Assembly (NCBI GenBank): GCA_020632235.1
Contig: JACKFY010000002.1
Span: 11,550 to 75,549, forward strand
Reading direction: 5' to 3'
DNA from: Pseudomonadales bacterium
GTDB lineage: Bacteria > Patescibacteriota > Microgenomatia > UBA1400 > PJMF01
DNA length: 64,000 nucleotides
A model generated the notes under the pieces. It saw nothing but the letters and a program-made list of their open reading frames with translations, had not been told where the DNA came from and searched no databases. Shown in pieces: positions 9,563-61,410 of this stretch (positions within the stretch are counted from its first letter, which is position 1; every line of letters begins with the position of its first letter). A program made the position numbers and the translations under genes.

Positions 9563-9573
9563 AAAACATACCT

Positions 9574-34416: not shown

Positions 34417-34424
34417 CCTTTCCC

Positions 34425-34515
34425 TTGTAAGGGAAAAACTCTGGCGGAGCCAGAGAAAAGGGTTTTCCCTCTGTCACTCTGCCGTGCCACGGTAGAGTCT
34501 TCTCACTCCCTGAAA
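34425..34515. repeat. composite hairpin-repeat element (family member)
   Basis: CCCTTGTAAGGG + AAAAACT-CTGGCGGAGCCAGAG-AAAAGGGTTTTCCCT + CTGTCACTCTGCCGTGCCACGG; parallels 45.7 kb and 51.5 kb copies. Confidence 0.55.
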
Positions 34516-37301: not shown

Positions 37302-39038
37302 CTACTTTCTCTCAACATTAAAAAATGCCCCACCGCACGGGCTGCCAGACCACTGTGGAATACGCAAGTTACCAGGGGCGCGCACATTAAACGCCTTGCA
37401 AAAATCACTCCCACTCATGCTAACGCCAGAAATAGTCACGTTGTTGGTCGCCCCCTCTCCCTGCGAGACAGAAACGCTCCCTGCACTCGCAATACCACCA
37501 TACTTGCTGGCCACATCGCGCAGCTCACTCATCGAGTACGGGTTGCCCCCCCAACAACTAGTGGTGACCGGTGTCACACGCTCCAGCTCTTCACCCGTAC
37601 CATTTTTCATTACTACATACGCATTGACAATATCAGCCATCTCTTCAGGGCTCAACCACGGGCTAGAGCGCCCGCAGGTCGCCCCAGAGCTGCTGTACCC
37701 CTGCCTCCACCAGGCTTTGTACAGCCATGGCGAGCCACCAATGCGCTCGTATGCTTTGGTGAGCAGGTCAGAACCACCACCTCCATCGGTCGTGTCCCAG
37801 CCAGCAGTACGAGTAAACCCACCGTGCGTTGAGGCAAACTGCGTTAGCACTGGCGAGCCACCATTGGTCAGCACCATTCCTCTGGTTTCTGCTACTGCTT
37901 CGGCCCAGGCTCCGCCCTTTGGCTCATTCTTGAATACCTGGCATGCCTCGGTAGTACAGATAGAGCTTTGGCCGTTATTGGTGTGGCGAATGGCATAGGT
38001 GCGCGCAGCAATAGCCTGCACTTTTAAGACTTCTTTTGGCCAACTGGCTGGCACTTCATAAATCCGTAACAAATACCAATCTTCAAACGAGCCAGAGCCC
38101 ACACCACTCACCGTAATTTGATCCATCGCAGGGTAATCTGTCTGAATAGTTGAACCTGGATAGTAGGCCGAGAGGATCTGCTGATAGCTCTGCCCACTTT
38201 TTGCCCGCCCCAGTGCTCCATACTGGCTCATGCCATTGCGGTGCGAGTACGCCCCAAATGAAAACACACCAAAGTATCCTGCTGGCGCTGTTGCGTTAAA
38301 GTTGTTGATAGAGCCCATTGAGTCGTCAGATAACTCGCCATCACCACTCACCGTAAACCCACCACTTCTGGCAGCAATGATCTCTTGCTGCCTAGCAGAG
38401 AGCGCAGCGATCTGGCCAGCCAGGTCGTTTTGATACACCTTTGCTTTTAAGACTTCTTCTTCAAAAAATGCCTGCTGGCTATCAAGTTGTTTTTGTAAAT
38501 TGGCTAACAGTACTTGGTTTTGTTCCAAGGTTTGCTTGTCTTTTTCCAGCTGGACGATGTCGCCAGAAATAGACTGGATCAACTTGTTGTCTTGGGCCTT
38601 GACCGAGTTTCGATAGGCTAAATCTTTGGTGATGTTGGCCGCATCTTGCGAGGCGATCACCAGCATGAGGGGTGAAAACGTGCGCGCTTTTTTGTATTGG
38701 TCGGCGATACGCAGAGTGAGCATCTCGTACTGTACGGCCAGGTCGAGCTCACGATCATCAATACTCTCGGCGAGCTCTACTGCCTCTTTTTTAGCACTTT
38801 CTACCCCCGCGCGTGCTGAGCGAATCTTTTTTTCCAGAGATGCAATTTCAGATTCAAGTGGCTTGGTCGCACTCTCCGACTGTTGTTTGAGGTTTTCCAG
38901 CTCATCAATTTGCCGTTGCAGCTCTTCTACCTCGTCAGCCTGTATCAAGATGGGAGTGGGCAGATGCCACACTAGCCCAACTAACACTAAAACGCCAAGA
39001 AGTAACACCAGCAGCCGAGCAGCTTTCATAGATATCAT
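37302..39038 (-). CDS. SpoIID/LytB-domain protein with an N-terminal signal-anchor and coiled coil (peptidoglycan lytic transglycosylase family)
   Basis: C-terminal region WYLLRIYEVPASWPKEVLKVQAIAARTYAI...QVF...AVAETRGMVLT...FASTHGGFT, matching SpoIID/LytB conserved blocks. Confidence 0.7.
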   Translation of the reverse strand: MISMKAARLLVLLLGVLVLVGLVWHLPTPILIQADEVEELQRQIDELENLKQQSESATKPLESEIASLEKKIRSARAGVESAKKEAVELAESIDDRELDLAVQYEMLTLRIADQYKKARTFSPLMLVIASQDAANITKDLAYRNSVKAQDNKLIQSISGDIVQLEKDKQTLEQNQVLLANLQKQLDSQQAFFEEEVLKAKVYQNDLAGQIAALSARQQEIIAARSGGFTVSGDGELSDDSMGSINNFNATAPAGYFGVFSFGAYSHRNGMSQYGALGRAKSGQSYQQILSAYYPGSTIQTDYPAMDQITVSGVGSGSFEDWYLLRIYEVPASWPKEVLKVQAIAARTYAIRHTNNGQSSICTTEACQVFKNEPKGGAWAEAVAETRGMVLTNGGSPVLTQFASTHGGFTRTAGWDTTDGGGGSDLLTKAYERIGGSPWLYKAWWRQGYSSSGATCGRSSPWLSPEEMADIVNAYVVMKNGTGEELERVTPVTTSCWGGNPYSMSELRDVASKYGGIASAGSVSVSQGEGATNNVTISGVSMSGSDFCKAFNVRAPGNLRIPQWSGSPCGGAFFNVERK

Positions 39039-39074
39039 TCACTATAGCAGGTGCGGTGTGCACTTGAGAAGAAG

Positions 39075-39400: not shown

Positions 39401-39458
39401 TCAACTAAAACAAACGAAGGGGTTTGCTCAATAGCTCCATCTGGAGTAAAATAACAGG

Positions 39459-40610
39459 GTGAAGAAAATACTACTACTGTGCTTTGCTGTATTGCAGATA
39501 GGCTCGTTTGTGATGCCGAGTCAAACCAAGGCGCAAGACATGTGTGGCGGCATTAGTGTTGAACCACCAATAGCATCACCACACCTAGATGGAGAGGTAC
39601 TCATCGTTAAAATAGCTGGATTTACAAATGGAGCATACAGAGAGTTTGCTATTACGGAAGACAGATTTGCCGCAATCACTCTTGAATCAGCAAGCGGAAC
39701 TGCTGTTGATGGTAAAATCACGCTGCAGTTTTCAGGCAACGGAGTAAAAAAACTTCTTTGGGCAGCGGATAGTAGAAAAATTTCTATGAACGGAGAAGGC
39801 TCTAATGACTGTGTTGTTCCAAATAGTTATTTCGAAATAGGTGAAAGTAGCACTAGTGGAAATCATTCTTGCGACCTCAACATTACCTATACAAACGATG
39901 AAAACGACACGTTCGGAAAATGGGGGTGCATAGACACCACAAGCGATTTTAGCATTAACGCTACTAACATTACAGACCCCCTGGGTGTGTTTTCGGGAAA
40001 TGAGGCAACATTACACTATGACAGTAACGCAGCTACCCTTGTTGATCTTGATGGTAACGGCAATTTTTTAAATCCTAAAATACTTCAATCAAATGAAACT
40101 AATTATGGCAATAACCATAGCGTGAGATTTGCTGTTGCAATAAGTGATTTAATTATTTACCACACGGCATGCGAAGAAACAGTCGGCACAATTGTCGAAT
40201 CATGCGCCAATGCCGTCACCCCCACCTCCACCACTCCCTTCCAACTTTGCTCCCAAATCCCCAATCCTGTCCAAAGGGCTGAATGCGAAACATGCGCTAC
40301 TACAGGAGGAGGTGACCCAGAAAACCCCGGTGGCGTCTGGACAGCAGTTGGCTGCATCAGCAAAGACCCTGCCTCTATCATCCAGTCACTCATCAAGGTA
40401 GGCCTGGGCATGTCTGGCGGCGTGGTGCTACTCACTTTCCTAGCTGGCGGCTTTATGCTCACTACTTCCCAGGGTAACCCTGAGGGCGTCAACAAGGCCA
40501 AAGAAATGATGACCGCCAGCGTGGTGGGCCTGGTATTCATGCTACTATCAATTAGTATCTTACAATTTATTGGCGTAACCGTACTACGAATACCAGGGTT
40601 TGGTACATGA
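39459..40610 (+). CDS. T4SS pilin-like protein (VirB2/TrbC-type C-terminal domain) with a ~280-aa N-terminal extracellular domain
   Basis: Signal peptide. C-terminus VGLGMSGGVVLLTFLAGGFMLTTSQGNPEGVNKAKEMMTASVVGLVFMLLSISILQFI: two hydrophobic helices flanking a GxxG/K-rich loop. Confidence 0.55.
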   Translation: MKKILLLCFAVLQIGSFVMPSQTKAQDMCGGISVEPPIASPHLDGEVLIVKIAGFTNGAYREFAITEDRFAAITLESASGTAVDGKITLQFSGNGVKKLLWAADSRKISMNGEGSNDCVVPNSYFEIGESSTSGNHSCDLNITYTNDENDTFGKWGCIDTTSDFSINATNITDPLGVFSGNEATLHYDSNAATLVDLDGNGNFLNPKILQSNETNYGNNHSVRFAVAISDLIIYHTACEETVGTIVESCANAVTPTSTTPFQLCSQIPNPVQRAECETCATTGGGDPENPGGVWTAVGCISKDPASIIQSLIKVGLGMSGGVVLLTFLAGGFMLTTSQGNPEGVNKAKEMMTASVVGLVFMLLSISILQFIGVTVLRIPGFGT

Positions 40611-41035
40611 GACAACTTACAATCACCCTTATTGGTACATGTTTGATACTATTTTGTACCCTCTTTGTGCCAAACATCACCCAGGCGCAAGGGGCTCTAC
40701 CTGATGGTTGGGTAGATGATGGTATTCCCCAAGAGGCATTTGACGCGGTCAACCCACTCGTGATTGAGCAAAGTAGTCAAGCACACCAACTCTCAACACC
40801 TGGTGGGATCGTCTCTCGCGCACTGGACTTCGCTTTTCCCATTGCTGGCATGGTACTGTTTGTGATGCTGGTTTGGGGTGGGTTTGAGATGTTGGCAGGC
40901 TCATTTGGTGGCGAGCAGTCACTGAATGCTGGAAAAAGCCGCGCCACCGCTGCTCTGGTAGGTTTCTTACTGCTGTTTTGCAGTTATTGGCTGATGCAAA
41001 TTATTCAATATGTATTTGGTATAGTTATTTTGTAG
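40607..41035 (+). CDS. T4SS pilin-like protein (VirB2/TrbC family)
   Basis: Signal peptide ending AQG. IAGMVLFVMLVWGGFEMLAGSFGGEQSLNAGKSRATAALVGFLLLFCSYWLMQII. Confidence 0.6.
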   Translation: MRQLTITLIGTCLILFCTLFVPNITQAQGALPDGWVDDGIPQEAFDAVNPLVIEQSSQAHQLSTPGGIVSRALDFAFPIAGMVLFVMLVWGGFEMLAGSFGGEQSLNAGKSRATAALVGFLLLFCSYWLMQIIQYVFGIVIL

Positions 41036-41523
41036 TGATAAAACGTATTTGCATCTTACTAGCTGCACTTCTTCTTTTAGGTGGCTTGTATGTTTTTTCC
41101 CATCACCCTGTGCAGGCACAAAGCTTTACCTGTTTTGAGCAGTGCGCGGCATTTTTTGGAGATGATACGCGATGTATAGGATTAGGGCTTCCTGCCTGCC
41201 CCCCCTGTACACCAGGAATAAGCGCGGGCACTGATCTTGGCGCCTGCCTCAAGCTTTCCAACGACACGCCCGTACGAGACGTCTACTCTAGCCCCTCAGT
41301 CCTGATCAACCTGGTGGTGCGCAATGTCTTTGTGCTAGCAGGCGTACTACTATTTGCTCTGGTGTTTTACGTGGGGTTCAAGATGCTCACGGGCGGTAAA
41401 AAAGGCTTTGAAGATTCGCGCAAAGCTCTCACTGCTGCCGTTGCGGGGTTTATTCTCATGTTTTCTGCCTACTGGATCATCCAGATTATCAAGTACCTAA
41501 CGGGCGCTGACATACCTATTTAA
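41035..41523 (+). CDS. T4SS pilin-like protein (VirB2/TrbC family), Cys-containing N-terminal region; GTG start proposed, ORF open from 40978
   Basis: LAGVLLFALVFYVGFKMLTGGKKGFEDSRKALTAAVAGFILMFSAYWIIQII. Confidence 0.5.
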   Translation: MIKRICILLAALLLLGGLYVFSHHPVQAQSFTCFEQCAAFFGDDTRCIGLGLPACPPCTPGISAGTDLGACLKLSNDTPVRDVYSSPSVLINLVVRNVFVLAGVLLFALVFYVGFKMLTGGKKGFEDSRKALTAAVAGFILMFSAYWIIQIIKYLTGADIPI

Positions 41524-41527
41524 TAGT

Positions 41528-41974
41528 ATGAAAAAATTACCACTCAGTTTTTCCAAAGCAATACTACTCTGTTTTATATTTCTGACAGCTTTACTAGCCC
41601 TCCCCCTCACCTCGCAGGTGAGGGGCCAAAGCTCTCTGGGCACCATCGATGTCCCTCCTGGCGTTGATGTCTACATCGCGCAATCTGGACTCTCGGATGA
41701 CGAGATCGCCATCATCTTTTTTATCAATCGTGGCATCTTGCTCATCACCGTTATCAGCGCCCTCTGGGCATCGCTGATGATCATCCTCGCCAGCTACACA
41801 CTACTCACCTCTCAGGGTGATACGGGCGCCTACACCAAAGTCAAGCAGTTATTTATCAACGCCGTCATTGGCCTACTACTCATACTGCTCACCTACACTA
41901 TTGCTGGCATCATCGGTCTACTTGTTTTTGGCGACCCAGGGTATATTTTAAATCCAGAATTGCCGCAGCCATGA
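41528..41974 (+). CDS. T4SS pilin-like protein (VirB2/TrbC family)
   Basis: Signal peptide. ITVISALWASLMIILASYTLLTSQGDTGAYTKVKQLFINAVIGLLLILLTYTIAGII. Confidence 0.55.
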   Translation: MKKLPLSFSKAILLCFIFLTALLALPLTSQVRGQSSLGTIDVPPGVDVYIAQSGLSDDEIAIIFFINRGILLITVISALWASLMIILASYTLLTSQGDTGAYTKVKQLFINAVIGLLLILLTYTIAGIIGLLVFGDPGYILNPELPQP

Positions 41975-42525
41975 GAAAACTTGTCCTTATTTTCATCCTG
42001 ATGTGCGTCACTATTATACCTAAAGCGGAGGTGTACGCTCAAAGCTCGGGCTGCAATTATGTCGGGCAATGTGTGGGAGGCAGAAGGTGCGAATGCGAGC
42101 TTGTCAACCCTACTACCGGCAACTGCACGTTGCTCAACCCTAGTGGGTCACTATGCGATACCTCAATTACTGGTGGAGTTGAGCCCCCTCAGGGAATAAC
42201 TGACTTTCAAGACAATAATGGCAATATTGTTGACATTGGCATCATCAACTTTGCCTCTCTTGCTATTCGAGCGCTCACCATAGTCTCTGGCATCTTCATT
42301 ATGTTTAACATCATTCGCGCTGGCTGGTACTACCTGATGGCCTGGGACAACACCGAGGCCACTGGCAAAGTAAAAGAGCTGCTCACCTACTCGGTCATTG
42401 GCTTGGGTGTGATTGCTACTGCCTACACTATCGCTGCGCTCATCGGCCTCATCATGTTTGGCGACCCCACGTTTATCCTCAACCCACAGCTATCTAGCGC
42501 TCTTTCAACTACCACTACCCCATAG
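41971..42525 (+). CDS. T4SS pilin-like protein with a Cys-rich N-terminal module
   Basis: Signal peptide; six Cys in the first 60 mature residues. ALTIVSGIFIMFNIIRAGWYYLMAWDNTEATGKVKELLTYSVIGLGVIATAYTIAALI. Confidence 0.55.
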   Translation: MRKLVLIFILMCVTIIPKAEVYAQSSGCNYVGQCVGGRRCECELVNPTTGNCTLLNPSGSLCDTSITGGVEPPQGITDFQDNNGNIVDIGIINFASLAIRALTIVSGIFIMFNIIRAGWYYLMAWDNTEATGKVKELLTYSVIGLGVIATAYTIAALIGLIMFGDPTFILNPQLSSALSTTTTP

Positions 42526-42552
42526 TCTGCTCTTTGCTATAATAGCCCCACC

Positions 42553-42933
42553 ATGCTACTACCCACCCTTATTGCCCAGTTTGGAGACGGCTTTCAGCCG
42601 GCGGTGGACAACAGCTACACCCAAAACGCCGACACTATCGAGGGTGCTACCAACAACACCGCTCTTGTTCTCTCCAACATCATCGGCATTCTCACCATCC
42701 TTGGCGGGCTGTTTTTTGTGGTCTATTTTATTATCGGCGCACTCAACTGGACACTGGCAGGCAATGACTCTGGCAAAGTAGGAAAAGCCATAGACCAAAT
42801 GCGCAACGCTACTATTGGTTTAGCACTCTTGGTGGCCTCATACGCTATTATCGGTGTTATTGGTAGCATTCTTGGGTTTAATATCTTTAATATTGCAGAT
42901 CTAATAAAAGGAGTTGCACCTGTAACAAACTAA
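42553..42933 (+). CDS. T4SS pilin-like protein (no obvious signal peptide)
   Basis: IIGILTILGGLFFVVYFIIGALNWTLAGNDSGKVGKAIDQMRNATIGLALLVASYAIIGVI. Confidence 0.5.
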   Translation: MLLPTLIAQFGDGFQPAVDNSYTQNADTIEGATNNTALVLSNIIGILTILGGLFFVVYFIIGALNWTLAGNDSGKVGKAIDQMRNATIGLALLVASYAIIGVIGSILGFNIFNIADLIKGVAPVTN

Positions 42934-42941
42934 AACCAAAC

Positions 42942-43451
42942 ATGAAAAAATTCTTTCAAACTTTCTCCGTTACGTTTTTATCACTCCTCATCTCTGTTCA
43001 GACAACCTTGGCTCAAGGAGCTGGAGGCGGTGGCGGAGGTACGGGCGGAGGAAGTGGTGGTTCTGGGGGTGGAGGCAATACTGGCGGTGGAGTAGGTGGT
43101 AGCGACCCTGTGTACGAGAACGGTATTATCACCAACCCCGTAATCGGCGACCTTGGCGCCTCTGGCGATGCAGCCTCTGGCAGCACGTTTCAAACATTAT
43201 TTGTACACTTTTGGCAGGTGATTATAATTATTGGTGCCGTAACTGTCCTCCTGATGTTCCTTTGGGGTGCTATTGAGTGGATTGCAGCCGGTGGTGACTC
43301 GGGTAAGATTGAGAAAGGGAGAAACCGCATCATCAATAGTATAATTGGACTCTTCTTACTTGTGTTTTCATTCATTATTATCAACTTTATTGGCTGGCTG
43401 CTCTTCCGGGGCTCATTCCAGATTCTTATATTTAATGTACCAACACCATAG
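42942..43451 (+). CDS. T4SS pilin-like protein with a Gly-rich N-terminal tract
   Basis: Signal peptide, a (G)n/GGS/GGT stretch, then IIIGAVTVLLMFLWGAIEWIAAGGDSGKIEKGRNRIINSIIGLFLLVFSFIIINFI. Confidence 0.55.
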   Translation: MKKFFQTFSVTFLSLLISVQTTLAQGAGGGGGGTGGGSGGSGGGGNTGGGVGGSDPVYENGIITNPVIGDLGASGDAASGSTFQTLFVHFWQVIIIIGAVTVLLMFLWGAIEWIAAGGDSGKIEKGRNRIINSIIGLFLLVFSFIIINFIGWLLFRGSFQILIFNVPTP

Positions 43452-43454
43452 CTT

Positions 43455-43931
43455 ATGATCTTTCAAACAACCATAAATCTTTCTCAAGAGGCTGCTGCAC
43501 AAAACCTCACTGGATATGACGCAGACCCCAGCGGCGGTATGGCCTTCCTCATCGGCCGTATTCTCTCTATTGCCATTGTTGTGGGTGCCGTTCTCCTATT
43601 GTTGTATCTTGTTTGGGGTGGCATTGAGTGGATCGCATCTGGCGGTGATAAGGGCAAGCTAGAGTCTGCCCGCAGCAAGATCACCCAGTCAATTATTGGC
43701 ATGATCGTCTTAGCTGGCTCCGTTGCTCTTTTCATGCTGGTGCAAGCGTTTCTTGGTTTTCAAGTCTTGCAATTTAATTTTGTAGGAGGGAGCAGGAATC
43801 CTGGAGGAAATACACCAAATTGTAATTATCAGACACAAACAACATGTAATGCTGCCCCTGGCTGTACCTGGATAATTGATAATAATTTTACACCACCAAA
43901 TGAGTTTTGTATGCCGGATGGAAATGGTTGA
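43455..43931 (+). CDS. T4SS pilin-like protein with a Cys-containing C-terminal tail
   Basis: LSIAIVVGAVLLLLYLVWGGIEWIASGGDKGKLESARSKITQSIIGMIVLAGSVALFMLV, then a tail with five Cys. Confidence 0.5.
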   Translation: MIFQTTINLSQEAAAQNLTGYDADPSGGMAFLIGRILSIAIVVGAVLLLLYLVWGGIEWIASGGDKGKLESARSKITQSIIGMIVLAGSVALFMLVQAFLGFQVLQFNFVGGSRNPGGNTPNCNYQTQTTCNAAPGCTWIIDNNFTPPNEFCMPDGNG

Positions 43932-44062
43932 CAATAACTAAACTATAGGATACAATAAAACCAGTAAAAAGTATTACTTGACTATACCTTGGCTACATGC
44001 CTATAATGTCTTGCCAAGGAGGCAGTACGTAAAAATAGTAGTACACAAATAAAAAGGAAATA

Positions 44063-44479
44063 ATGCTACAAAAAGCACGAAAATCTCTCAACACAGCACT
44101 GGTAACTGCTGGTGCACTCTTGGCAACAAGTATGCCAGCACTTGCACAAGATCCACAAGATCCTATTGGCACTGTTACAGTTCAGAGTACTGATGGTTAT
44201 TTTTCAAATTTTGGCGACCTCATAAGCGATCTTGTAGTTATTGCAATGGCAATTGCTGCATTATTAGTATTTGTTTATCTAATCTGGGGTGGCATTGAAT
44301 GGATCACTTCCGGTGGTGATAAAGGTAAAACTGAGTCTGCTCGCAACAAAATCACTGCAGCAATTATCGGTCTTATCATTCTTGCAGCTTCATATGCCTT
44401 GCTTAGAATTGCTTTAGAGTTTATTGGCGTAGATGGTGGCCTCCAGGGCATACTCAATAGAGCTGGTGGAAACAAATAA
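44063..44479 (+). CDS. T4SS pilin-like protein; candidate major pilin
   Basis: Signal peptide. VIAMAIAALLVFVYLIWGGIEWITSGGDKGKTESARNKITAAIIGLIILAASYALL. Followed by the strongest intrinsic terminator in the array. Confidence 0.6.
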   Translation: MLQKARKSLNTALVTAGALLATSMPALAQDPQDPIGTVTVQSTDGYFSNFGDLISDLVVIAMAIAALLVFVYLIWGGIEWITSGGDKGKTESARNKITAAIIGLIILAASYALLRIALEFIGVDGGLQGILNRAGGNK

Positions 44480-44500
44480 CTTATTGTAGATATACAGGAA

Positions 44501-44540
44501 ACCCCTCACTTTAATTTTTTAACCAAGGTGAGGGGTTTTT
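44501..44540 (+). terminator. Rho-independent terminator (AAACCCCTCAC ... GTGAGGGGTTTTT)
   Basis: 8-11-bp GC-rich stem followed by T5, 22 nt after the stop of the 44063 gene. Confidence 0.7.
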
Positions 44541-44657
44541 CGTTCCAGTTATGCTAAAATATGTGTGGTGTTACAGTACAACTACTTCAATGTATCCTCT
44601 ATTGATTTTTATAGGATATTTTGATATAATAAATCCGTTTACACATAAAATACTCTT

Positions 44658-45224
44658 ATGAAGAAACTTTTTCTCTCTGCTCTACTTGGTTTTTGTCTGA
44701 TGCTTACGCCTAGCGTGTATGCCCAGGGCATGCTCAACACCCCTAGTGACCAAACAGGTGACGTGGTAGCACGCAAAGATGGTGACATACTGTACCTAAC
44801 CACCTCGGTTACTGACAATAGCGCAAGCGGTACTACCGAGCAAACAAGCCAGACAACCACTACTACCTCCAGCACCCAACAAGATGGCGATGTTGTACTG
44901 AATACCTACTTTGGCCAAATTGTGATACCACAAGGCTACTTTCATAACTTTGGAGAGCTTTTCACAAAGCTCCTCACTGCAGCCATGGCGGTGGCAGCTC
45001 TGCTCACGCTTGGGTTTCTCATCTGGGGCGCGTTTAAGTGGATCACCTCTGGCGGTGATAAAGGGAAAATTGACTCAGCTCGCTCGACCCTTATTGCCGC
45101 GGTGGTAGGGCTCATTATTGTCGCTGCCTCGTACGCTATTTTACTACTAACCCTCAACTTCCTCGGCATTGAAGGTGGCCTCAATGGCCTACTACAACGG
45201 GCTGGCTCTGCCATGAGCAACTAA
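44658..45224 (+). CDS. T4SS pilin-like protein, paralog of the 44063 gene with a longer Thr-rich N-terminal region
   Basis: AAMAVAALLTLGFLIWGAFKWITSGGDKGKIDSARSTLIAAVVGLIIVAASYAILLL...GIEGGLNGLLQRAGS; shares the GYFxNFGxL and C-terminal motifs with 44063. Confidence 0.6.
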   Translation: MKKLFLSALLGFCLMLTPSVYAQGMLNTPSDQTGDVVARKDGDILYLTTSVTDNSASGTTEQTSQTTTTTSSTQQDGDVVLNTYFGQIVIPQGYFHNFGELFTKLLTAAMAVAALLTLGFLIWGAFKWITSGGDKGKIDSARSTLIAAVVGLIIVAASYAILLLTLNFLGIEGGLNGLLQRAGSAMSN

Positions 45225-45266
45225 CCTTTTACCTTCCTCAGCTCAAAATCATGCTATACTCCTGGT

Positions 45267-45674
45267 ATGAAACAACATCTGTTTGCTAAAAATCTTTTCA
45301 TCACACTCACGCTTGTATTGTGGAGTGTTTTTTTGCCCGTCCAGGCACATGCCCAGACCAGCGCCTGGGGTGGCACTTGCGTGGGTGGGCCAGACCGTAA
45401 CGTAGCGACTATTCAGGGTCTGGAGTGCTTAGTAGCCAATGTGTTTGTGGTGATTATCACCCTTATCGGCCTGGCTGGGTTTGTGATGTTTATTATTGCC
45501 TCGTTTCGCTGGATGACGGCAGGCAGCAACACCGAAGGCATCAAAAAGGCGCGTGCCACCATGACCTACGCGGTGGTGGGCATTGTGGTCTCGCTTTCTG
45601 CCTTTATAGTGCTCAATGTCCTGGCAGACTTTACTGGAGTTGAAGCCATCAAGGTGTTCCGTATTCCCAGCTGA
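45267..45674 (+). CDS. T4SS pilin-like protein
   Basis: Signal peptide. VFVVIITLIGLAGFVMFIIASFRWMTAGSNTEGIKKARATMTYAVVGIVVSLSAFIVLNVL. Confidence 0.55.
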   Translation: MKQHLFAKNLFITLTLVLWSVFLPVQAHAQTSAWGGTCVGGPDRNVATIQGLECLVANVFVVIITLIGLAGFVMFIIASFRWMTAGSNTEGIKKARATMTYAVVGIVVSLSAFIVLNVLADFTGVEAIKVFRIPS

Positions 45675-46035: not shown

Positions 46036-46039
46036 CCAC

Positions 46040-49000
46040 ATGACAACCAAACCAGCACAACCCACTCAGGCTTCCAGAGCCAAAGCTGGTATAATCGAGG
46101 CCATGTTGGCCCTACGATCTCCCACTCGGTTTTTGTTGTCGTGCCTTTTGGCAAGCAGTCTCTTGCTGCTCTCGGTAAGTGGAGTTTTGGCAGGTAAAGC
46201 GGGCATTAACATTGGCGACCACTTTGGTGAAGTAGACCAAGCAGCACAAATCACCCGTGATGGTGGTTGGATAGTCGTCATGGCACAGCCGGGCGACTGC
46301 ATGGATCTCTCGCAAATGATGGCAGATCACCCCAACACCAACTTTGTTATCCGCGGACACCACCCTCACACCGACGTAATGTCTCCTGAACACGCAAAAG
46401 CATGGGCCTACACCCTAGCCAACATGAATACGGGCGGAAGAAAAGTATATTTTTACCCTGTGAACGAGCCATTTACCCGGGGGGCGCAGGAGGGGTTTTC
46501 CAACGACCCTGCCACCACCGCTCAGATGGTGAACGCGTATGTTGACACTCTTCTCTCTACTGCTCCGGGACTAGACCAAAAGGTGGTATTTCTCTCGCCC
46601 ATGATAAACAGAACACACCCAAACTATGAAAGCAATGTGGACTTGTTGGGCGGAGCAGGTTTTTACAATAAATTTTCTGGTATATCAATGAATTTATATG
46701 ATTTTCAAGGCTGCGGAGGGCCGTTTTGCCACCCCAACAAACATCTTAACTCAGGAAGATTTTTAGAAGACAAAGCGCTCGAAGGCATTGATGCTGGCAA
46801 GCAGGTCTACGCTGTCGAATCTGGCGTGGTAAATGGAAACGTCGTCTACATAGACACCCAACTGCGAACGTACTACGAGGCTGGTTATGGCAGCCCTGGG
46901 CCATTTCTTGACTCCAGGCTGGCAATGACCGCCACATTTTCCTACAACCCCCACGCCAGCGACTGGAGCATCTACGGTACACAGACCGCTAGTTTTTTTC
47001 AGGGGTTGGGTGGTGGAACTGCGCCAATTCCAGAAACCTTTGACGAGGAAGCGTGGTTTGCTGACAACAACATACAAGACAAAATTGACGCAGGCGAGAT
47101 CATCCAGTGTGACGAGTGCGGCTTGAGCCCTTCCACCCCCGACGGGGCTGGCTACTGTGCGGCTGTGGGCAACTATAGTACGACGATCTTCCCCGAGTAC
47201 GAATACGAAAACACCGAGTACTACATCCATCCTATTTGCGAAAATGAAGAGGTGTGCCGAAGTGGTAGTTATGAAGAGGCAACCGTGGAGTATAAAAACA
47301 GCCTCATAAACCAAGGGTATGAGGCCTACTGCGCCAACGAAGAAGTGCAAGTACTCGGCACTACGGGGCAAAACTGGGATCTCTACCTATCACTCATTGC
47401 CTCTGGACAACAACCCGGGAGTCAGCAAACAACACAAAGCGAGTACGTGCTTGACGCCACCAACATGAAGGTGCCGCTATTCAGAGATGTATCGGGTAAA
47501 CGCTGGCGCATGACATCGCTGGAAGAGTTTTTTGGATTTAGAGATATTTACACCAACAAAGACACTGAAAGCCTCATCAACAGCGCTATGATTGAAAAAC
47601 TAACTTCCCAAGAGCAGCGCTGTCAGCTGTCGGTGCAGATCTTGCGGGAGACCAAGCAATTTTGCCAGCGAGAAGAAAATGCAGATACAGCCTCGTGCTA
47701 TCTCAATACTCAGATACCAGACCCTGCCGGCTCGGTAATTGGCAACATGAAGAGACTCGACGCCCTCTCTCTTTTTGAAGGACAAGGCACAACATGCAGT
47801 GAGCTTGTCCAGCGTCAAGACACAGACCCGCTAAAAGCCGCCATTATGAATAATCCATTGTATCTTGAAAGGCTCTATAGACTGGGGTTCTTGGTAACCT
47901 CAGTACGGCAGGTTGCGCCAAATAGCTACACAGGCAATCCCGATACTTTTTTTAGTTTTTTTTCGAATAACTATAGTTCTGGGGTGGGGCTCGCCTACGC
48001 CTCTAGCATGAACGATGTTTCGATCACTGCATTTAAAATCCCTGATGTTGGGCTGGGTCATGACTACGAAAAACTCCAAAACGAAGATGGTTCTACAGCG
48101 GATTTGCAAGACACCAGCATATATACCGACCCATTGTACAACACCAAGCTATCGGTGCTCAGCACCAAGCAACAGCAGTACGCAGCCACCATGAGTGCAG
48201 AGTATAAAGATATACTCAGGCACAACTCATACACCGAGTACGAACGTCCAGATGGCTCTGTCGTTACTGGTCCTCGTCCGTTTGGCGGTAATGACCTCAT
48301 CAACTGCCCTTTCACTCCTGGCTGTGGCGTACCTCATTTTGACCCCAGCACGCCAGTTGACCCGCTTTTTCGTGCAATTATAGACTTGGTCAATACCAAC
48401 AAAGGCATTTACGGCACAGAAGACAAAGATGAAGACGGCAAGCCCGATGTTATTCCTGGCAGGACCTACACAGTAGAAGACATAGCTGATAGAGACAAAG
48501 GTTTGTATCTAAACTGTAAGCCAGAAATAGTCGAGATCACCCCCGAGGGTGTGACGCGCATTTCAGATCCATCGACCATTGATGAGTCTGACCCCTATAG
48601 AAACCTAGAAAATGACCTGGGCGAAACAAACGAACACATCGCGTTGTCTCTGGCAAACAGACTCAGAAACGGTGACACGAGCACTCCTATTTCGAGAACA
48701 AACTTTAGCCCATTTACTTCTATTATCAAATCAACTAATACAGAAAAAAATAGGTACGCTATGATCAACACCTATGTGGTGTATCCGGGAGAGTACGAGG
48801 CAAACGAGATTGCAAATGCTATTCGCAGCCCCTTTGTGCCCTTTGAAGACGCAGAAGAGATTGACATAAACAGACTCAAAGGTTGCGACCCCTACGAAAC
48901 AGACTGTCCGCCACTGCTACAACCAGACGGATCGGTCAAACCAAAAATCCAGAGAGGATTTGAGCTCATTGGAGGTATTTTTCAGTCAAGCTGGGGAAGT

Positions 49001-49750
49001 GTTGTCTTTCCATTCAGGGACGTCACTATCTCGTGCCCACCTGGCGAACCAGACTGCAACTACAAAGAGGCTGGTGCTGGAGTCATTGCGTCCAACCTTA
49101 CCAACACACTGATGATTCCTGGCGAAAAACTAGGTTTTTGGACCAGAGAGATCCAGAAATCACTCAATACCGCCGTCAGCACCCAACGCTCATACCTTGA
49201 CAGCTGTCAGACACTAGAGCAATTTTTACTGGGCACCTGCGGCGGGGCAACAAGTAGTGGTTCTACCACCACTCTAGCCAGTAGTGTTGTACCCACTCCA
49301 ACCATACTAGGAAACCACCAGTGCATACCTGTTCCAGAGGGAAACCCTTACTGCAGCATCTCTGCTATTCAAAGCTTTACGGGCTGGGATGAAGCTCGTG
49401 CCCGCACAGCGTCCATCATCTGTAATGTTGAAAGTGGGGGTAACCCAAATGTAGCAAACACCAGTTGTTTGGTAGGTGGTACTGTTGACTACAGCATCGG
49501 TCTGTTTCAGATCAACCTACTTGCTCACGGTACACCTGGCATTCTGTTTGATGCAAACGGGCGAACAAACGGTAGTCCTGGCTATGACCCAACAGCAGTC
49601 CCCTGCAGTGTTGCCAATGCAGCGCTCCTCGAGCAAAACGAAACGTACTACTTTATTCCTGATAATAACTTGAGAAAAATGGTGGAGTTGTCAAATGATG
49701 GGACCAACTGGCAGCCTTGGGCAGCTGCTAGCTACTGCGGGATCAACTAG
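46040..49750 (+). CDS. giant secreted protein (1236 aa) with a C-terminal Rpf/SLT-like lytic transglycosylase domain and an N-terminal glycoside-hydrolase-like (NEP motif) region; putative T4SS-associated cell-wall hydrolase
   Basis: Signal peptide ~residues 22-50. C-terminus IICNVESGGNPNVANTSCLVGGTVDYSIGLFQIN...W (ESGGN...GLFQI transglycosylase signature). N-terminal region FVIRGHHPH...VYFYPVNEP... Confidence 0.7.
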   Translation: MTTKPAQPTQASRAKAGIIEAMLALRSPTRFLLSCLLASSLLLLSVSGVLAGKAGINIGDHFGEVDQAAQITRDGGWIVVMAQPGDCMDLSQMMADHPNTNFVIRGHHPHTDVMSPEHAKAWAYTLANMNTGGRKVYFYPVNEPFTRGAQEGFSNDPATTAQMVNAYVDTLLSTAPGLDQKVVFLSPMINRTHPNYESNVDLLGGAGFYNKFSGISMNLYDFQGCGGPFCHPNKHLNSGRFLEDKALEGIDAGKQVYAVESGVVNGNVVYIDTQLRTYYEAGYGSPGPFLDSRLAMTATFSYNPHASDWSIYGTQTASFFQGLGGGTAPIPETFDEEAWFADNNIQDKIDAGEIIQCDECGLSPSTPDGAGYCAAVGNYSTTIFPEYEYENTEYYIHPICENEEVCRSGSYEEATVEYKNSLINQGYEAYCANEEVQVLGTTGQNWDLYLSLIASGQQPGSQQTTQSEYVLDATNMKVPLFRDVSGKRWRMTSLEEFFGFRDIYTNKDTESLINSAMIEKLTSQEQRCQLSVQILRETKQFCQREENADTASCYLNTQIPDPAGSVIGNMKRLDALSLFEGQGTTCSELVQRQDTDPLKAAIMNNPLYLERLYRLGFLVTSVRQVAPNSYTGNPDTFFSFFSNNYSSGVGLAYASSMNDVSITAFKIPDVGLGHDYEKLQNEDGSTADLQDTSIYTDPLYNTKLSVLSTKQQQYAATMSAEYKDILRHNSYTEYERPDGSVVTGPRPFGGNDLINCPFTPGCGVPHFDPSTPVDPLFRAIIDLVNTNKGIYGTEDKDEDGKPDVIPGRTYTVEDIADRDKGLYLNCKPEIVEITPEGVTRISDPSTIDESDPYRNLENDLGETNEHIALSLANRLRNGDTSTPISRTNFSPFTSIIKSTNTEKNRYAMINTYVVYPGEYEANEIANAIRSPFVPFEDAEEIDINRLKGCDPYETDCPPLLQPDGSVKPKIQRGFELIGGIFQSSWGSVVFPFRDVTISCPPGEPDCNYKEAGAGVIASNLTNTLMIPGEKLGFWTREIQKSLNTAVSTQRSYLDSCQTLEQFLLGTCGGATSSGSTTTLASSVVPTPTILGNHQCIPVPEGNPYCSISAIQSFTGWDEARARTASIICNVESGGNPNVANTSCLVGGTVDYSIGLFQINLLAHGTPGILFDANGRTNGSPGYDPTAVPCSVANAALLEQNETYYFIPDNNLRKMVELSNDGTNWQPWAAASYCGIN

Positions 49751-56434: not shown

Positions 56435-59400
56435 ATGTTTGACGCTCGTACTGACTCGCCAGAAACAACAGAGCAAACCGCTCAAGACAACCAGGGTGGG
56501 CAAAGCATACCCAGGGGGCACGTACTTGTCTCCGACCTCAAGCATCTCAAGACTGGCCTGGCAGGAAATGACTGGCAGCAGCTAGAGAAATTGCTCTTGT
56601 CTATCCTTGGCGCACTTGATGGTGAACACCACCTGCTGCATGACCAAAAAATAACCATTGCTCTTGAGGATGGAATGGGAGAACTGACCACAACCAACGA
56701 GCCGCACTCGGCTTTTGGGCGAGAAGAACAAAAAGTCTGGTTGTTTTTTACCGATGTTCTTAGTATTTCTCTTGACGCGCTCGAGCAGCTAGAGGTGCCT
56801 GGATACTCAGAGAGTGAGGTTGCAGCAAAGCTAAACAGCTTTTCAAACAAAACAGGGGCAGACTCTGGCGTTATAGATGAAGTAGAGCTGGTGGATAATC
56901 AAAACCTGCGCTTTGAGGTATTTGAGATTGTACAAGCTGCCTACGAGGCAGTTTTGGCCCATATCAATGCACAAACGAAACAAGAGCCGCCAGAAAAAGA
57001 AACAGATAAAAGCGAAACAACTTCTGATGATCCAGGGTTAAAAAAGCAACAAAGGGGTGATGCTGTAACTCTTTCTGGGGCAAAAGTACGAAGAAAAGAA
57101 ACAACGGAGGGAGGCGGTGAAACAGGCCAAACCCAACCAGCCCAGCAAACACTACAAGAAGAAAAGCTCTACGGCACGCGCACTGCTGCCCAGGCCTTCC
57201 AGTACCAAGCTGCCTGGCTGCAGGCTGCAGGCATGCATCAGATTGCTACCCAGCTAGGGATTGATATTGACAGCCTGGGGGCAGAACAACAAGCGCTACT
57301 GCGCACTGCGCTACAAAACGCCATAGGCCAGTATCTGAGCGATCCGCGCAACTTGCAAAACCTAAGCGACCTAAAAAATGCCGACATATACCGCCTAGAG
57401 GCATTACGAGAGATAACGAGACTGCTGAATGGACAAAAACTCCAGATTGTCTTGACTAGAGTAGATGAGCAAGGAGTAGAAGCACAAAGCGAGACAAGCG
57501 TTACCCTAGACCAACCCACCACCGTTGACGACACACAACTACTCTCCCAGGCAATACGCCAGCACTTCCCCAATGTAAGTAACCAACAAATTGTCACTAT
57601 TGAGCAAATGCTGCACACACTAGAGGTACTAAACGGCTCTAGCGTTACTATCACCCCCACTATTGTTATTGAGATCTTTGAACAAGCCACCGCCATTCGC
57701 CTCTCTCCAGACGACCCGCGCCTGCTCTCACTCGTTGCTTTTTTCAAGACCTTTGTGGTGATGCAGGTCAAGGAAGCTGCCCTGATCACAGAAAATAAAG
57801 ACACAGAAAGTGGTATTACTATTGCCGGTACTCCCAGAGAAAGCCTAGAGCAACACTACTCACCTCGCACTATCGTATTAGCAGAAACAAGCAAAGATGA
57901 GCCAGAAGTTCTCCCCGCAGAGCAAAGAGAAAATGTGGCTCGCCGGGCTGGCCGGCTGGGGGATCGCCAGTTTTTGAAAGTACAAAAAATGTATGGCCCC
58001 GTGTGGAACAGCTTTACTGCCGAGCAACAAGAAGCTATCGCCGCTTATATCCAAAGCAAAAACCCCCAGTTTACCCCCTACCGAGACCCCATCAGCAAAG
58101 AACTGCTCTTTCCCATCGAGTTTACCTGGCTCTCGGGCAGTGAGTTAAAGCGTGTTGTTGAGAAAAAAACGAGTGGTGGGGTTGTTATTGACTCGGCGCA
58201 GGCAAATAACTCTGTGGCAGAGTTTGAGCGACTGCGGATAGATCCGAAAATCCAAGAGCAACTTGAGGTAATCGAGCTAGAACAGCTCTACTCCCAGGCA
58301 TTGCTTGAACAACTCGATGAGCAGCAAAAGCAAATCTTATTAAACCAGCTGGTACAGGAACAGATCGCCAAGTACCAGGCTCAACTAGAGTACTTTGCGG
58401 CAGTAGAACAGTTGGAGCAGCAGATCTTCATTCAACAAAGACGTGCATATATAGAGCAACAACTAGCACTTCTAGAGGCTGGAGAAGCACAACTAGCAGA
58501 TTTTCAATATGCCCAGATGATGGGTGGGATTGTCTCCCAAGAACGACAACAAGCAGCTTGGGAAGCAGCAAAGGCGGGTGGTGAGCCTATTCCAGAAGGA
58601 ACTACTCCCAGTCGATTTTTCAAACGAGGGCAAACTGCTGGAAGTATAAGAAACACTACTGTCAATAAAGCAACAAAGCGCGCTCAAGATCTAAAAGAGT
58701 TAGCAAAGCTAGCTGCTGCTGCGGGCAGAGTAGCAAGTGGCGACATCAAGGCGCTTGTTGATGTTATTCGCAATAAGCAATTTAGAAAACTTGTGAAATA
58801 CCTCGGCTTAGGAGGCATCGCGGGAGGGGTTATTTCTTATATTCTGGGGGGACTAAAAGCGCTCGCAGGATTTGTGGGTGGTGGAGTTATTGGTGGTACT
58901 GTTGGTGGATTCATTGGCTTTTCAATTGGAGGTCCGCTTGGAATTATACCAGGCATTCTTGTCGGCTCAGCAATCGGAGGGACTATAGGCTCAGCAATTG
59001 GAGGAACTATGGGAGGGTGGCAGGGTGGGTTCACTTCCTCTATCGGCACCACAGAGGGTCTTTCAAATATCCAGGCTGCCACTGGCGGTGTCAGCAACAT
59101 CGTGACAGGAACAGGTGGACAAGCAGCTGGCGCAGGAGGATCTACTCTCACTACCTCAGGTGGAGGTGCGGGAGGATTTGGGACAGCTACAACTACCACA
59201 GCTGCCACTGGTGGTGGAGGCGTTATTGCAAGCGCAACGGGCGCGGCTGCAGCGGCCGCCAGTGCTCTGGGTATTGGCGTACTAGCCCCAGCCATGGGTA
59301 TTGCCATGATTGCTGGTATGTCGCTCTATAACCTTTGGATCATCCAACACTCATTTTTAGCACCCCTACCCCTGGGCACACCTCTCACCGCCCAGCCAAG

Positions 59401-60310
59401 CTACTCCCAGTACATCGAGGTAGAAAAATCGGTCACCCCCAGCGTGCTGGAAAACGGCAGTGCGCCGCCCACCCAGCTGACCTACACCATCACCATTCGC
59501 CCCAGGAGTCTGTACCAGGTAGAGATCATAAGCGCCACCGACACCTTTCAGTTTTTGGGCAAAGACGGGGAAAAAGTAGATCCCGTTATTACAGAGCTAG
59601 ACAGCAACAACCAACACCCAGTCGATTTACAGACGGATTTTGACATCACACCAGCCGAAAAGGTAACTACCACCAAGACAGGCACCTACACCTTTACCAT
59701 CACCAACTCCCCCACCGACGTCATGATCCAGAACACCTTTGAGGTAGACTTTATCGCGTACGACGGCACAGGCGCCCAGGTGGCAACAGACAGCATCACC
59801 GCCACTGCCCAGCTGCCGGTGGGAACGCCAGAGATATTTGGCTGTTGGCCCACGACGGGCTCTATCACCCAGCTACCATACAACCTACGGTCATGGAGTT
59901 CTACCTCCCAGTTCGCGGACGGCCACAGCAGGGTGGCAGAATACAACCACGACGCATTTGACATTGCTAATGGTGCTGGCACACCTATTTATGCGCCATT
60001 TTCAGGAACTGCCTTTACGGGCAATAGTTTTGCAGGGGGGATATGGGGATATGGATACTATGTAGTACTAAAAACCAACAGCAATCAAAGCCTTATGTTT
60101 GCCCACATGACACGACAAGCGTTTTCGGGCACAAAGAGTGTTACAGCAGGAGAAACCATAGGGTTTATGGGCAGTACTGGCAACAGCAGGGGAAGCCATC
60201 TTCACTACGGTATACTAGAGACGACCAGCACTCCTTTTGGGGTCCTTAGAACGCTTGTTCCTGATAGAAGCGCTCCACTTAATACATATGTAACAAGCTG
60301 CTATGACTAA
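56435..60310 (+). CDS. giant protein (1291 aa): coiled-coil N-terminal region, Gly-rich membrane segment, beta-rich region, C-terminal peptidase M23 (LytM) domain
   Basis: C-terminus HDAFDIANGAGTPIYAPFSGTAF...GYGYYVVLKTNSNQSLMFAHMT...GETIGFMGSTGNSRGSHLHYGI (HxxxD ... HxH M23 signature). Central GGIAGGVISYILGGLKALAGFVGGGVIGG... Confidence 0.75.
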   Translation: MFDARTDSPETTEQTAQDNQGGQSIPRGHVLVSDLKHLKTGLAGNDWQQLEKLLLSILGALDGEHHLLHDQKITIALEDGMGELTTTNEPHSAFGREEQKVWLFFTDVLSISLDALEQLEVPGYSESEVAAKLNSFSNKTGADSGVIDEVELVDNQNLRFEVFEIVQAAYEAVLAHINAQTKQEPPEKETDKSETTSDDPGLKKQQRGDAVTLSGAKVRRKETTEGGGETGQTQPAQQTLQEEKLYGTRTAAQAFQYQAAWLQAAGMHQIATQLGIDIDSLGAEQQALLRTALQNAIGQYLSDPRNLQNLSDLKNADIYRLEALREITRLLNGQKLQIVLTRVDEQGVEAQSETSVTLDQPTTVDDTQLLSQAIRQHFPNVSNQQIVTIEQMLHTLEVLNGSSVTITPTIVIEIFEQATAIRLSPDDPRLLSLVAFFKTFVVMQVKEAALITENKDTESGITIAGTPRESLEQHYSPRTIVLAETSKDEPEVLPAEQRENVARRAGRLGDRQFLKVQKMYGPVWNSFTAEQQEAIAAYIQSKNPQFTPYRDPISKELLFPIEFTWLSGSELKRVVEKKTSGGVVIDSAQANNSVAEFERLRIDPKIQEQLEVIELEQLYSQALLEQLDEQQKQILLNQLVQEQIAKYQAQLEYFAAVEQLEQQIFIQQRRAYIEQQLALLEAGEAQLADFQYAQMMGGIVSQERQQAAWEAAKAGGEPIPEGTTPSRFFKRGQTAGSIRNTTVNKATKRAQDLKELAKLAAAAGRVASGDIKALVDVIRNKQFRKLVKYLGLGGIAGGVISYILGGLKALAGFVGGGVIGGTVGGFIGFSIGGPLGIIPGILVGSAIGGTIGSAIGGTMGGWQGGFTSSIGTTEGLSNIQAATGGVSNIVTGTGGQAAGAGGSTLTTSGGGAGGFGTATTTTAATGGGGVIASATGAAAAAASALGIGVLAPAMGIAMIAGMSLYNLWIIQHSFLAPLPLGTPLTAQPSYSQYIEVEKSVTPSVLENGSAPPTQLTYTITIRPRSLYQVEIISATDTFQFLGKDGEKVDPVITELDSNNQHPVDLQTDFDITPAEKVTTTKTGTYTFTITNSPTDVMIQNTFEVDFIAYDGTGAQVATDSITATAQLPVGTPEIFGCWPTTGSITQLPYNLRSWSSTSQFADGHSRVAEYNHDAFDIANGAGTPIYAPFSGTAFTGNSFAGGIWGYGYYVVLKTNSNQSLMFAHMTRQAFSGTKSVTAGETIGFMGSTGNSRGSHLHYGILETTSTPFGVLRTLVPDRSAPLNTYVTSCYD

Positions 60311-61325: not shown

Positions 61326-61410
61326 ATGACCCTTTTTGGACTATTTTTGTCACCACTGTGTGCTATGGTCTAGTGCTCGCGCTCGTGGTGCGCTATACTT
61401 GCCAGAGAGT

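Follow-up and report, generated by a model that had tools for sequence, protein, structure and literature searches.

Pilin arrays of Patescibacteria and related systems

Tandem arrays of VirB2-like pilin genes have been described in Patescibacteria. In passages of Quinonero-Coronel et al. 2025 (PMC12102498), a search of 3,035 Patescibacteria genomes with the profiles PF18895 and PF04956 is reported to give 441 arrays of 2–11 VirB2-like pilin genes in 383 assemblies, mostly of Microgenomatia and Saccharimonadia. Identity within these arrays averaged 25% with a maximum of 54%, and the same passages suggest that the arrays make their carriers versatile as to host strain, as in Bartonella and Anaplasma. 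The present analysis concerns a 64,000 nucleotide (nt) stretch of contig JACKFY010000002.1 (assembly GCA_020632235.1, positions 11,550 to 75,549), termed here the window, which carries 11 pilin-like genes (genes 1 to 11) on one strand between positions 39459 and 45674. The phenomenon is not new, because arrays have been reported in PMC12102498 and PMC10633639, and the window is an example of the maximal size. What a comparison with 81 related loci adds is an apparently fixed order of orthologous groups (orthogroups) and a predicted regulatory layout that sets one candidate major pilin, gene 9, apart from the others.

In Southlakia epibionticum ML1, essential pilin genes lie inside an essential type IV secretion system (T4SS) cluster (Wang et al. 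2023, PMC10633639). As given in passages of that paper and in its Table S1, all six clustered pilins (SEML1_0014–0019) were called essential by transposon sequencing (Tn-seq). The T4SS and the pilin cluster are essential for epibiotic growth of the sole genetically tractable patescibacterium. The last pilin of the Southlakia cluster, a TrbC-matching protein of 138 amino acids (aa), is set off by an 83-nt gap.

The window resembles the published Patescibacteria arrays, as far as passages of PMC12102498 describe them, in having tandem PF18895/PF04956 genes in a chromosomal, Gram-positive-like T4SS neighborhood with PrgI nearby. Such arrays are defined there by at least two VirB2-like genes in tandem or one gene apart with low identity; the window shows 11 adjacent genes with a mean identity of 27% and a peak of 58%. 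Its size equals the maximum given in these passages, and a related locus with 12 genes (L074, see below) exceeds the published range. A fixed orthogroup order and one major pilin under a separate promoter and terminator do not appear in the available passages of PMC12102498, PMC10633639 and the 2025 review PMC12857230, nor do signal-peptide-less members or an adhesin-fused first gene in those of PMC12102498 and PMC10633639, which lean towards versatility in host range or antigens.

The VirB2/TrbC/TraA pilins of diderm conjugative systems (T-pilus, F-pilus, RP4) share with the window proteins a long leader, a two-helix hairpin and a basic connecting loop. In both cases a lytic transglycosylase and proteins of VirB3 and VirB4 type are encoded nearby, the VirB4 of the window being putative and assigned by position. 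However, the diderm systems have one pilin gene and a VirB5 tip protein, whereas the window has 11 pilin-core genes and no VirB5. The window host is also a monoderm, and several members carry predicted extracellular appendages of 40–280 aa.

Type IV pili and type II secretion systems (T2SS) use the same logic as is proposed below, an abundant subunit that has expression signals of its own, with low-copy paralogs sharing a polymerization core (PilA with FimU/PilVWX; GspG with GspHIJK). For gene 1 the parallel is FimH of type 1 pili, an adhesin in which a binding domain is joined to a pilin domain. These are analogies only: there is no homology, the G|FxxxE motif is absent from the array, and fold and assembly machine differ. 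The VirB2 arrays of Bartonella and Anaplasma are lineage-specific amplifications that are read as antigenic variation. The window paralogs differ from this type in that they appear to be ancient, with conserved 1:1 orthologues and gene order. The arrays of Bartonella and Anaplasma phagocytophilum, cited in passages of PMC12102498, are similar in that they also consist of tandem paralogs in a T4SS for host interaction.

The array and its shared core

A preliminary description of the window, made from the sequence alone, had proposed 11 same-strand genes of 126–383 aa with a common C-terminal pilin core. All of these open reading frames are present on the forward strand:

39459..40610, + strand, gene 1, 383 aa
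40607..41035, + strand, gene 2, 142 aa, start overlapping the end of gene 1 by 4 nt
41035..41523, + strand, gene 3, 162 aa from GTG, 181 aa from an upstream TTG at 40978
41528..41974, + strand, gene 4, 148 aa
41971..42525, + strand, gene 5, 184 aa
42553..42933, + strand, gene 6, 126 aa
42942..43451, + strand, gene 7, 169 aa
43455..43931, + strand, gene 8, 158 aa
44063..44479, + strand, gene 9, 138 aa
44658..45224, + strand, gene 10, 188 aa
45267..45674, + strand, gene 11, 135 aa

Genes 1–8 overlap or are spaced 3–27 nt apart. Independent gene callers choose the 162-aa start of gene 3, and the NCBI call of gene 9 is 79 aa. The gene 1 protein has an exact counterpart in NCBI, H6774_01930 of a 245-kb contig. 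Two independent assemblies of Sequence Read Archive runs match the window at 99.92% identity over 11,948 and 2,428 nt; thus the array is not an assembly artefact. The preliminary description had itself raised assembly duplication as a possible objection, and the divergence of the paralogs (see below) speaks against it as well.

The C-terminal segment of about 75 residues can be aligned in 11/11 proteins. It consists of a hydrophobic helix, a segment W/GG..W..SGGDxGK..xAR..I..A.IGL that includes the short basic loop, and then another hydrophobic helix. Strict invariance in the alignment is limited to one Gly. Pairwise core identity within the array is 16–58%, with a mean of 27%. A hidden Markov model (HMM) trained on the cores of this locus gives 62–101 bits for the 11 genes and no other match in the 64 kb, and the common core proposed earlier is confirmed in this way.

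PF18895 (T4SS_pilin) is matched by 11/11 genes at E<1 and is the sole Pfam family matched by all of them. Seven of the 11 reach the gathering cut-off of 26.6 bits: gene 2 (32.9 bits), gene 4 (28.9), gene 6 (31.9), gene 7 (38.5), gene 9 (39.5), gene 10 (30.1) and gene 11 (29.2). Below it are gene 8 (26.1), gene 1 (20.7), gene 3 (17.1) and gene 5 (E<1 only). These four score 62–87 bits with the locus-trained HMM (gene 1, 62; gene 3, 73; gene 5, 66) and have orthologues with precomputed PF18895 matches.

With PF04956 (TrbC/VirB2), gene 9 gives a weak match of 21.3 bits (E = 3.2e-4), which, unlike that of PF04956 pilins proper, is under the cut-off of 27.9 bits; the Pfam search gave no PF04956 match for the other 10 window paralogs. 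Among gene-9 orthologues, 30/40 match PF04956 at E<0.01 (best 2.9e-8) and 6/40 match T4SS_CagC. Seven of the 11 window genes also show a weak match to the NCBIfam model NF045849 (Mbov_0395 family pilin-like conjugal transfer protein), which by its name seems to us to point to integrative and conjugative elements of Mycoplasma. The similarity to pilin profiles on which the preliminary description depended is therefore found across the cores with PF18895, while its second expected profile, PF04956, holds for gene 9 weakly and for the gene-9 orthologues and fails for the remaining paralogs of the window.

Hydropathy shows two hydrophobic segments in the core of 11/11 proteins. The AlphaFold2 (AF2) model of gene 9 has a leader helix and a helical hairpin (helices H50–81 and H87–120) with pLDDT, the predicted local distance difference test score, above 95. 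In the gene 1 model the core helices are H304–336 and H341–374, and the hairpin, positions 304–374, has a pLDDT of about 90. Fold searches with the helical hairpins return generic matches only, which include ATP-synthase c-type hairpins. Taken together, the profile matches support assignment of the cores to the T4SS_pilin (VirB2/TrbC-type) family.

Membership in the type IV pilins was considered and rejected. The class III prepilin motif (G|F/M-xxx-E) is absent from the 11 leaders, which are Sec-type, and none of the 11 genes gives an N_methyl or type IV pilin Pfam match.

Orthologues across related loci

The array was compared with 81 related loci, 80 from species-representative genomes collected with a gene-9 homologue profile and one (L003) from a metagenome assembly. 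Array-size counts cover 84 sequences, which include the window and two loci of the same organism (L001 and L002). Arrays are the rule among them. The largest array per locus has 7 genes in 33 loci, 8 in 12, 9 in 15, 10 in 3, 11 in 3 and 12 in one.

Every window paralog has reciprocal-best-hit orthologues at a constant array rank, in 20–81 loci. A core of seven genes can be recognized, with genes 3, 4|5, 6, 7, 8, 9 and 11 at ranks 1 to 7; relative to it, genes 1, 2 and 10 and the gene 4/5 duplication are extra in the window. Gene 3 orthologues are found in 70 loci, usually as the first of 7 genes, gene 5 orthologues in 56, and gene 11 orthologues in 77, nearly always as the last gene of the array. 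Genes 1 and 2 head the array in about 20 loci (gene 2 orthologues in 20, always at position 2), and gene 10, a gene-9-like duplicate, has orthologues in 20. Complete collinear sets from gene 1 to gene 11 are present in three other species (L052, L074 and L082), with a mean identity of 45–49%. Core identity between orthologues is 41–67%, compared with the paralog mean of 27%, and N-region identity between orthologues is 16–33%. The comparative check suggested in the preliminary description thus gives orthologues of fixed rank, and the paralogs appear to be old 1:1 orthologues in a fixed order, with no lineage-specific expansion.

Several loci show variations in layout. L074 (CAZZBW010000005.1, positions 4390–11485) carries 12 collinear pilin genes, the extra one between genes 8 and 9. 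In L003, the closest relative on a long contig, the gene 1 orthologue and another pilin of 211 aa adjoin a SpoIID gene at positions 29–3071 (compare 37302–40610 of the window). Housekeeping genes (prenyltransferase, amino-acid kinase, NUDIX, sigma factor) fill the roughly 6 kb between them and the remaining pilin genes, so that the gene 1/gene 2 module can be separated from the nine-gene module. In 15 loci clustering splits the pilins into a two-gene group and a larger group of six to nine genes.

Where orthologues of every array gene are present, the record titles read Pacebacteria, Woesebacteria or Patescibacteria group. Pacebacteria and Woesebacteria belong to the GTDB class Microgenomatia. 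The NCBI taxonomy places Pacebacteria under Minisyncoccota. The Saccharibacteria, whose epibiosis the preliminary description had cited, are not supported as the lineage of the window, the closest named relatives being Pacebacteria and Woesebacteria metagenome-assembled genomes (MAGs), and we regard the organism as probably a patescibacterium of the Pacebacteria/Woesebacteria group. Arrays of 7 and 8 genes are also found in records titled TM6 (L023, CP011212.1) and Vitreimonas sp. (L056, DASPLQ010000012.1, a 1.41-Mb contig), and many related loci are titled 'uncultured Pseudomonadales bacterium'. The array regions under TM6, Vitreimonas and Pseudomonadales titles have 34–44% G+C. Either the MAGs under such non-patescibacterial titles were wrongly labelled or binned, or arrays of this type also exist beyond Patescibacteria.

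Gene 9 and its expression signals

Gene 9 has 1134 homologues, and identity is about 50–74% among the 120 matches listed. Its core is nearly invariant and has the highest orthologue core identity in the array, 67%. The sequence AAGGA at about −10 to −6 of gene 9 is the sole clear Shine-Dalgarno sequence of the array. Predicted signals near gene 9 are:

43928–43956 and 43978–44007, + strand, sigma-70-like promoter matches 5′ of gene 9, 11/12 positions each
44514..44549, + strand, terminator-like hairpin (RNAfold), CCCCTCAC ... GTGAGGGG then TTTTTCGTT
44602..44630, + strand, promoter-like site 5′ of gene 10, 10/12 positions, extended TG

A sigma-70-like match of at least 10/12 positions is found upstream of 68% of 82 gene-9-type genes (81 orthologues and that of the window), as against 6% in shuffled sequence and 3–19% for five other orthogroups tested. 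The predicted hairpin has an 8 base pair G+C-rich stem (12 pairs in RNAfold) with TTTTTCGTT directly 3′ of it, and the 50 nt preceding this T-run have a minimum free energy of −18 kcal/mol. It corresponds to the strong terminator which had been proposed after the gene at 44063, that is, gene 9. A consensus terminator scan with a loop limit of 8 nt missed it because the loop is too long for that limit, and the scan was replaced by one based on RNAfold. A strong hairpin with a T-run is present within 130 nt after 93% of 81 gene-9-type genes, the one of the window included, and the figure is at most 13% for every other orthogroup. In the related loci, the gaps around gene-9-type genes are about 90 nt compared with 2–13 nt for other pilin genes. 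Gene 9 is thus the canonical and most conserved pilin of the array and a candidate for the major subunit.

Leaders, appendages and accessory genes

In 9/11 proteins hydropathy shows three hydrophobic segments, a signal-peptide-like N-terminal segment that resembles a cleavable leader and the two core helices. Genes 6 and 8 show two segments only and therefore have no signal peptide. This trait, which the preliminary description had noticed in the genes at 42553 and 43455, is conserved in both orthogroups; in that of gene 6, a signal-peptide-like segment is found in 7% of 75 members. The N-tails of genes 6 and 8 of the window contain no Lys or Arg.

The predicted leader junction is A|Q in 10/11 proteins, among them those of genes 6 and 8 with their vestigial leaders, and G|Q in gene 4; the predicted mature proteins would begin with Gln. 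In Agrobacterium tumefaciens, VirB2 is cleaved before Gln and then cyclised. The mature N-terminal Gln brought head-to-tail cyclisation into consideration, as in T-pilin and RP4 pilin, and no such claim is made, the C-termini not being conserved. Every mature ectodomain of the window proteins has an even Cys count.

Gene 1 has a 278-aa region between signal peptide and core, in agreement with the extracellular domain of about 280 aa first proposed for it. The ectodomain is variable and beta-rich with 10 Cys and is followed by a Cys linker. The protein terminates in LRIPGFGT, and a conserved motif at the end of the gene 1 family reads LRIPGFGG. Alignments with homologues are mostly confined to the C-terminal third, with 50–64% identity. 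Seven Cys are conserved in the family, of which C264 and C279 never vary and the other five are kept at ≥90%, and apart from the Cys positions the N-domain has diverged beyond alignment. AF2 models residues 40–246 as beta-rich with pLDDT 55–70, and a fold search with this weakly modelled N-domain gave no identification. Gene 1 is a candidate adhesin-fused pilin and the best candidate in the array for a tip or host-contact adhesin.

The other N- and C-terminal features listed in the preliminary description are likewise found. Genes 3 and 5 (41035 and 41971) have 6 Cys each in the mature N-region. The mature N-region of gene 7 (42942) is 44% Gly compared with an orthogroup median of 12%, and the poly-Gly tract is lineage-specific. 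The C-terminal tail of gene 8 (43455) carries 4 Cys and is also lineage-specific, orthologue tails being usually without Cys. Gene 10 (44658) displays a Thr/Ser-rich N-extension, and its richness in Ser and Thr is conserved among orthologues. Gene 11 has 2 Cys. The cores of the sister genes 4 and 5 are 42% identical, and gene 10 is the closest paralog of gene 9 with cores 58% identical.

Neighboring genes

The array appears to sit in a T4SS-type neighborhood with SLT_3, M23, PrgI/VirB3-like and TrwB/DUF87 ATPase proteins, as judged from the following genes:

18487..20817, − strand, ATPase of 775 aa matching DUF87 and TrwB_AAD_bind (family of T4SS coupling proteins or VirB4-like proteins)
37302..39038, − strand, SpoIID-domain cell-wall protein, divergent from the array (PF08486, 59.8 bits)
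46040..49750, + strand, 1236-aa secreted protein with C-terminal SLT_3 lysozyme-like domain, VirB1-like role (PF18896, 32 bits)
56435..60310, + strand, 1291-aa protein with C-terminal M23 peptidase domain (PF01551, 64 bits)
61336..62613, + strand, PrgI-family (VirB3-like) T4SS protein (PF12666, 31.7 bits, cut-off 27)
62626..64000, + strand, open reading frame directly after PrgI, open at the window end, at the position expected for VirB4

The DUF87/TrwB-type ATPase lies about 20 kb upstream of the array. An SLT_3 protein follows the array in the relatives L001 and L003 as well, the order pilin, SLT_3, YtxH is common to relatives, and the SpoIID gene adjoins the gene 1 orthologue in L003. A search of genome contigs with the 1236-aa SLT_3 protein found no relative, and the N-terminal fragment at 62626..64000 gave no Pfam or PDB sequence match. 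Neighbors of 607, 737, 340 and 294 aa gave no Pfam or NCBIfam family.

Proposed model and alternative explanations

We favor, with moderate confidence, the reading that the 11 genes are the pilin module of a Patescibacteria-type, Gram-positive-like T4SS and form a fixed, non-redundant set of VirB2-like pilins in which gene 9 is the major one. The set is taken as fixed because orthologue rank is constant, full collinear sets exist, and core identity is higher between orthologues than between paralogs. It is taken as non-redundant because the six clustered Southlakia pilins are each essential by Tn-seq. Gene 9 is read as the major pilin on account of its most conserved core, the gaps of about 90 nt around it, and its promoter, Shine-Dalgarno sequence and terminator. 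The appendages are read as extracellular on account of the signal peptides, the even Cys counts, the 16–33% identity of the N-regions and the retained Cys scaffold of gene 1.

In the proposed mechanism, in which membrane insertion topology, extraction by the T4SS and polymerization are modelled on known VirB2-type pili, the hairpins would insert in the cytoplasmic membrane with N- and C-termini outside and the basic loop inside. The T4SS, with the PrgI/VirB3-like protein and a VirB4-like ATPase, would extract them into an extracellular filament that crosses the wall, and the nearby SLT_3, M23 and SpoIID hydrolases may assist its passage. Gene 9, with its own predicted strong promoter, the sole good ribosome-binding site and a terminator, would supply the bulk subunit. 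Genes 1–8 would form a translationally coupled operon and genes 10–11 a second unit. Both would provide low-copy accessory pilins whose N- and C-terminal appendages lie on the filament exterior. The gene 1 product, a pilin core with a large, presumably disulfide-stabilised, fast-evolving and beta-rich ectodomain, could act as an adhesin at the tip or in host contact.

Several points weigh against this reading. A pilus of a Patescibacteria T4SS has never been seen and is treated as a possibility only in passages of PMC12857230, and Gram-positive-type T4SSs are generally without pili (passages of PMC10633639). A PDB sequence search with the gene-9 profile detected no relative. The promoter and terminator signals are predicted from consensus matching and folding energies rather than from expression measurements, and the open reading frame at 62626..64000 is a putative VirB4 from its position and a reading of its sequence only. 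The Tn-seq essentiality of the upstream pilin genes of Southlakia could also partly reflect polar effects.

A more specific form of the same reading is put forward tentatively, and we think it somewhat doubtful. The array may encode a heteropolymeric VirB2-type filament of at least seven conserved, non-redundant paralogs, consisting of a major pilin, minor or initiating pilins and, depending on the lineage, a pilin fused to an adhesin in place of VirB5. This would amount to the major/minor logic of type IV pili and T2SS evolved independently by a conjugation-derived T4SS in a monoderm. As part of that same tentative proposal, two of the minor or initiating subunits would enter the membrane with no signal peptide, and the succession of genes in the array may mirror the order of assembly. 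Among the functions suggested in the preliminary description, pilins specialized for tip and minor roles fit the comparative data best and phase or antigenic variation fits them worst.

If the fixed set with a separate major pilin is true, the gene-9-type protein becomes the target for antibodies, tagging, cryo-electron tomography and filament purification, and a stoichiometry and distinct phenotypes are predicted for the accessory pilins. It would also speak against antigenic or host-range variation, the default interpretation in the literature. The hypervariable gene-1-type ectodomain is nominated as a candidate determinant of host specificity.

A second explanation, which we consider unlikely, is that the pilins form a membrane-embedded complex, a hetero-oligomeric ring or stalk of the T4SS channel whose exposed domains serve as wall-spanning or host-contact spikes, with no long filament. 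The relatives of PF18895 include the Mbov_0395 family, to which the weak NF045849 matches of 7/11 genes belong, and the ATP-synthase c-type hairpins returned by the fold search would also suit such a ring. On the other hand, the predicted strong promoter, Shine-Dalgarno sequence and terminator of gene 9 suit a very abundant structural subunit, and there is sequence affinity to TrbC/VirB2 and CagC pilins. The conserved basic loop, which is likened to the phospholipid-binding loop of conjugative pilins, also counts against a membrane complex. In its favor, passages of PMC10633639 give no known pilus for monoderm T4SSs, and none has been observed.

Less probable still is a host-range or antigenic repertoire, in which each paralog builds its own homopolymeric filament or coat and so widens or switches the host cells recognized. 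The N-regions and appendages do evolve much faster than the cores (16–33% versus 41–67% identity), some decorations (poly-Gly in gene 7, the Cys-bearing tail in gene 8) are lineage-specific, the gene 1 ectodomain is hypervariable, and host-range versatility is the suggestion made for Patescibacteria in passages of PMC12102498. However, the paralogs have old 1:1 orthologues in fixed order across species. The tight spacing or overlap of genes 1–8 points to co-expression and not switching, and a repeat scan, made for the repeat flanking the array (see below), found no long near-identical repeats or inverted-repeat switch within it. Two orthogroups are conservedly without a signal peptide, which argues for distinct roles, and in Southlakia 6/6 clustered pilins are individually essential. 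The antigenic or host-range model could still hold for the appendages.

An artefact or an unrelated two-transmembrane family (holins, bacteriocin immunity proteins), for which weak sub-threshold matches to MatE, TctB and FtsK_4TM could be cited, is dismissed as very improbable, since the array is reproduced in three independent assemblies at ≥99.9%, divergence among the paralogs is deep, PF18895 is the one family in 11/11 and the T4SS context is kept in relatives.

Repeats and other features of the window

A hairpin-rich intergenic repeat is present on both flanks of the array (39040–39458 and 45680–46039), with partial copies at 23387–23544, 14619–14806, 34411–34474, 7188–7261 and 52305–52354. 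Among its parts are a 44-nt block of 91% identity (CTTTGTCATTTCGACTCCCGACACGTCGGGACTGGAGAAATCCC) and multiple hairpin units of the form GGGTTTAGC...CCCC. No Rfam family was matched at gathering score, and the repeat is absent from the 81 related loci except L001, of the same organism. A role as cassette boundary or regulatory leader was rejected, given the scattered partial copies in the window and the absence from relatives. The repeat looks like a lineage-specific element of the repetitive extragenic palindromic or miniature inverted-repeat transposable element (REP/MITE) kind.

Upstream of the array are genes for an ATP-dependent DNA ligase of archaeal/eukaryotic type (28647–30488, − strand) and a Fic-domain protein (31103–32386, − strand). 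The 5′ part of a 23S rRNA gene occupies positions 1–1498 (− strand), with 1498 nt for model positions 1–1129, and therefore has about 370 nt extra, possibly an insertion or intron. A tRNA-Ala gene at 1807–1881 adjoins it. In most bacteria AUA is decoded by a lysidine-modified CAU tRNA; the window carries a tRNA-Ile gene with the anticodon TAT (UAU) at 14949–15023 (− strand).

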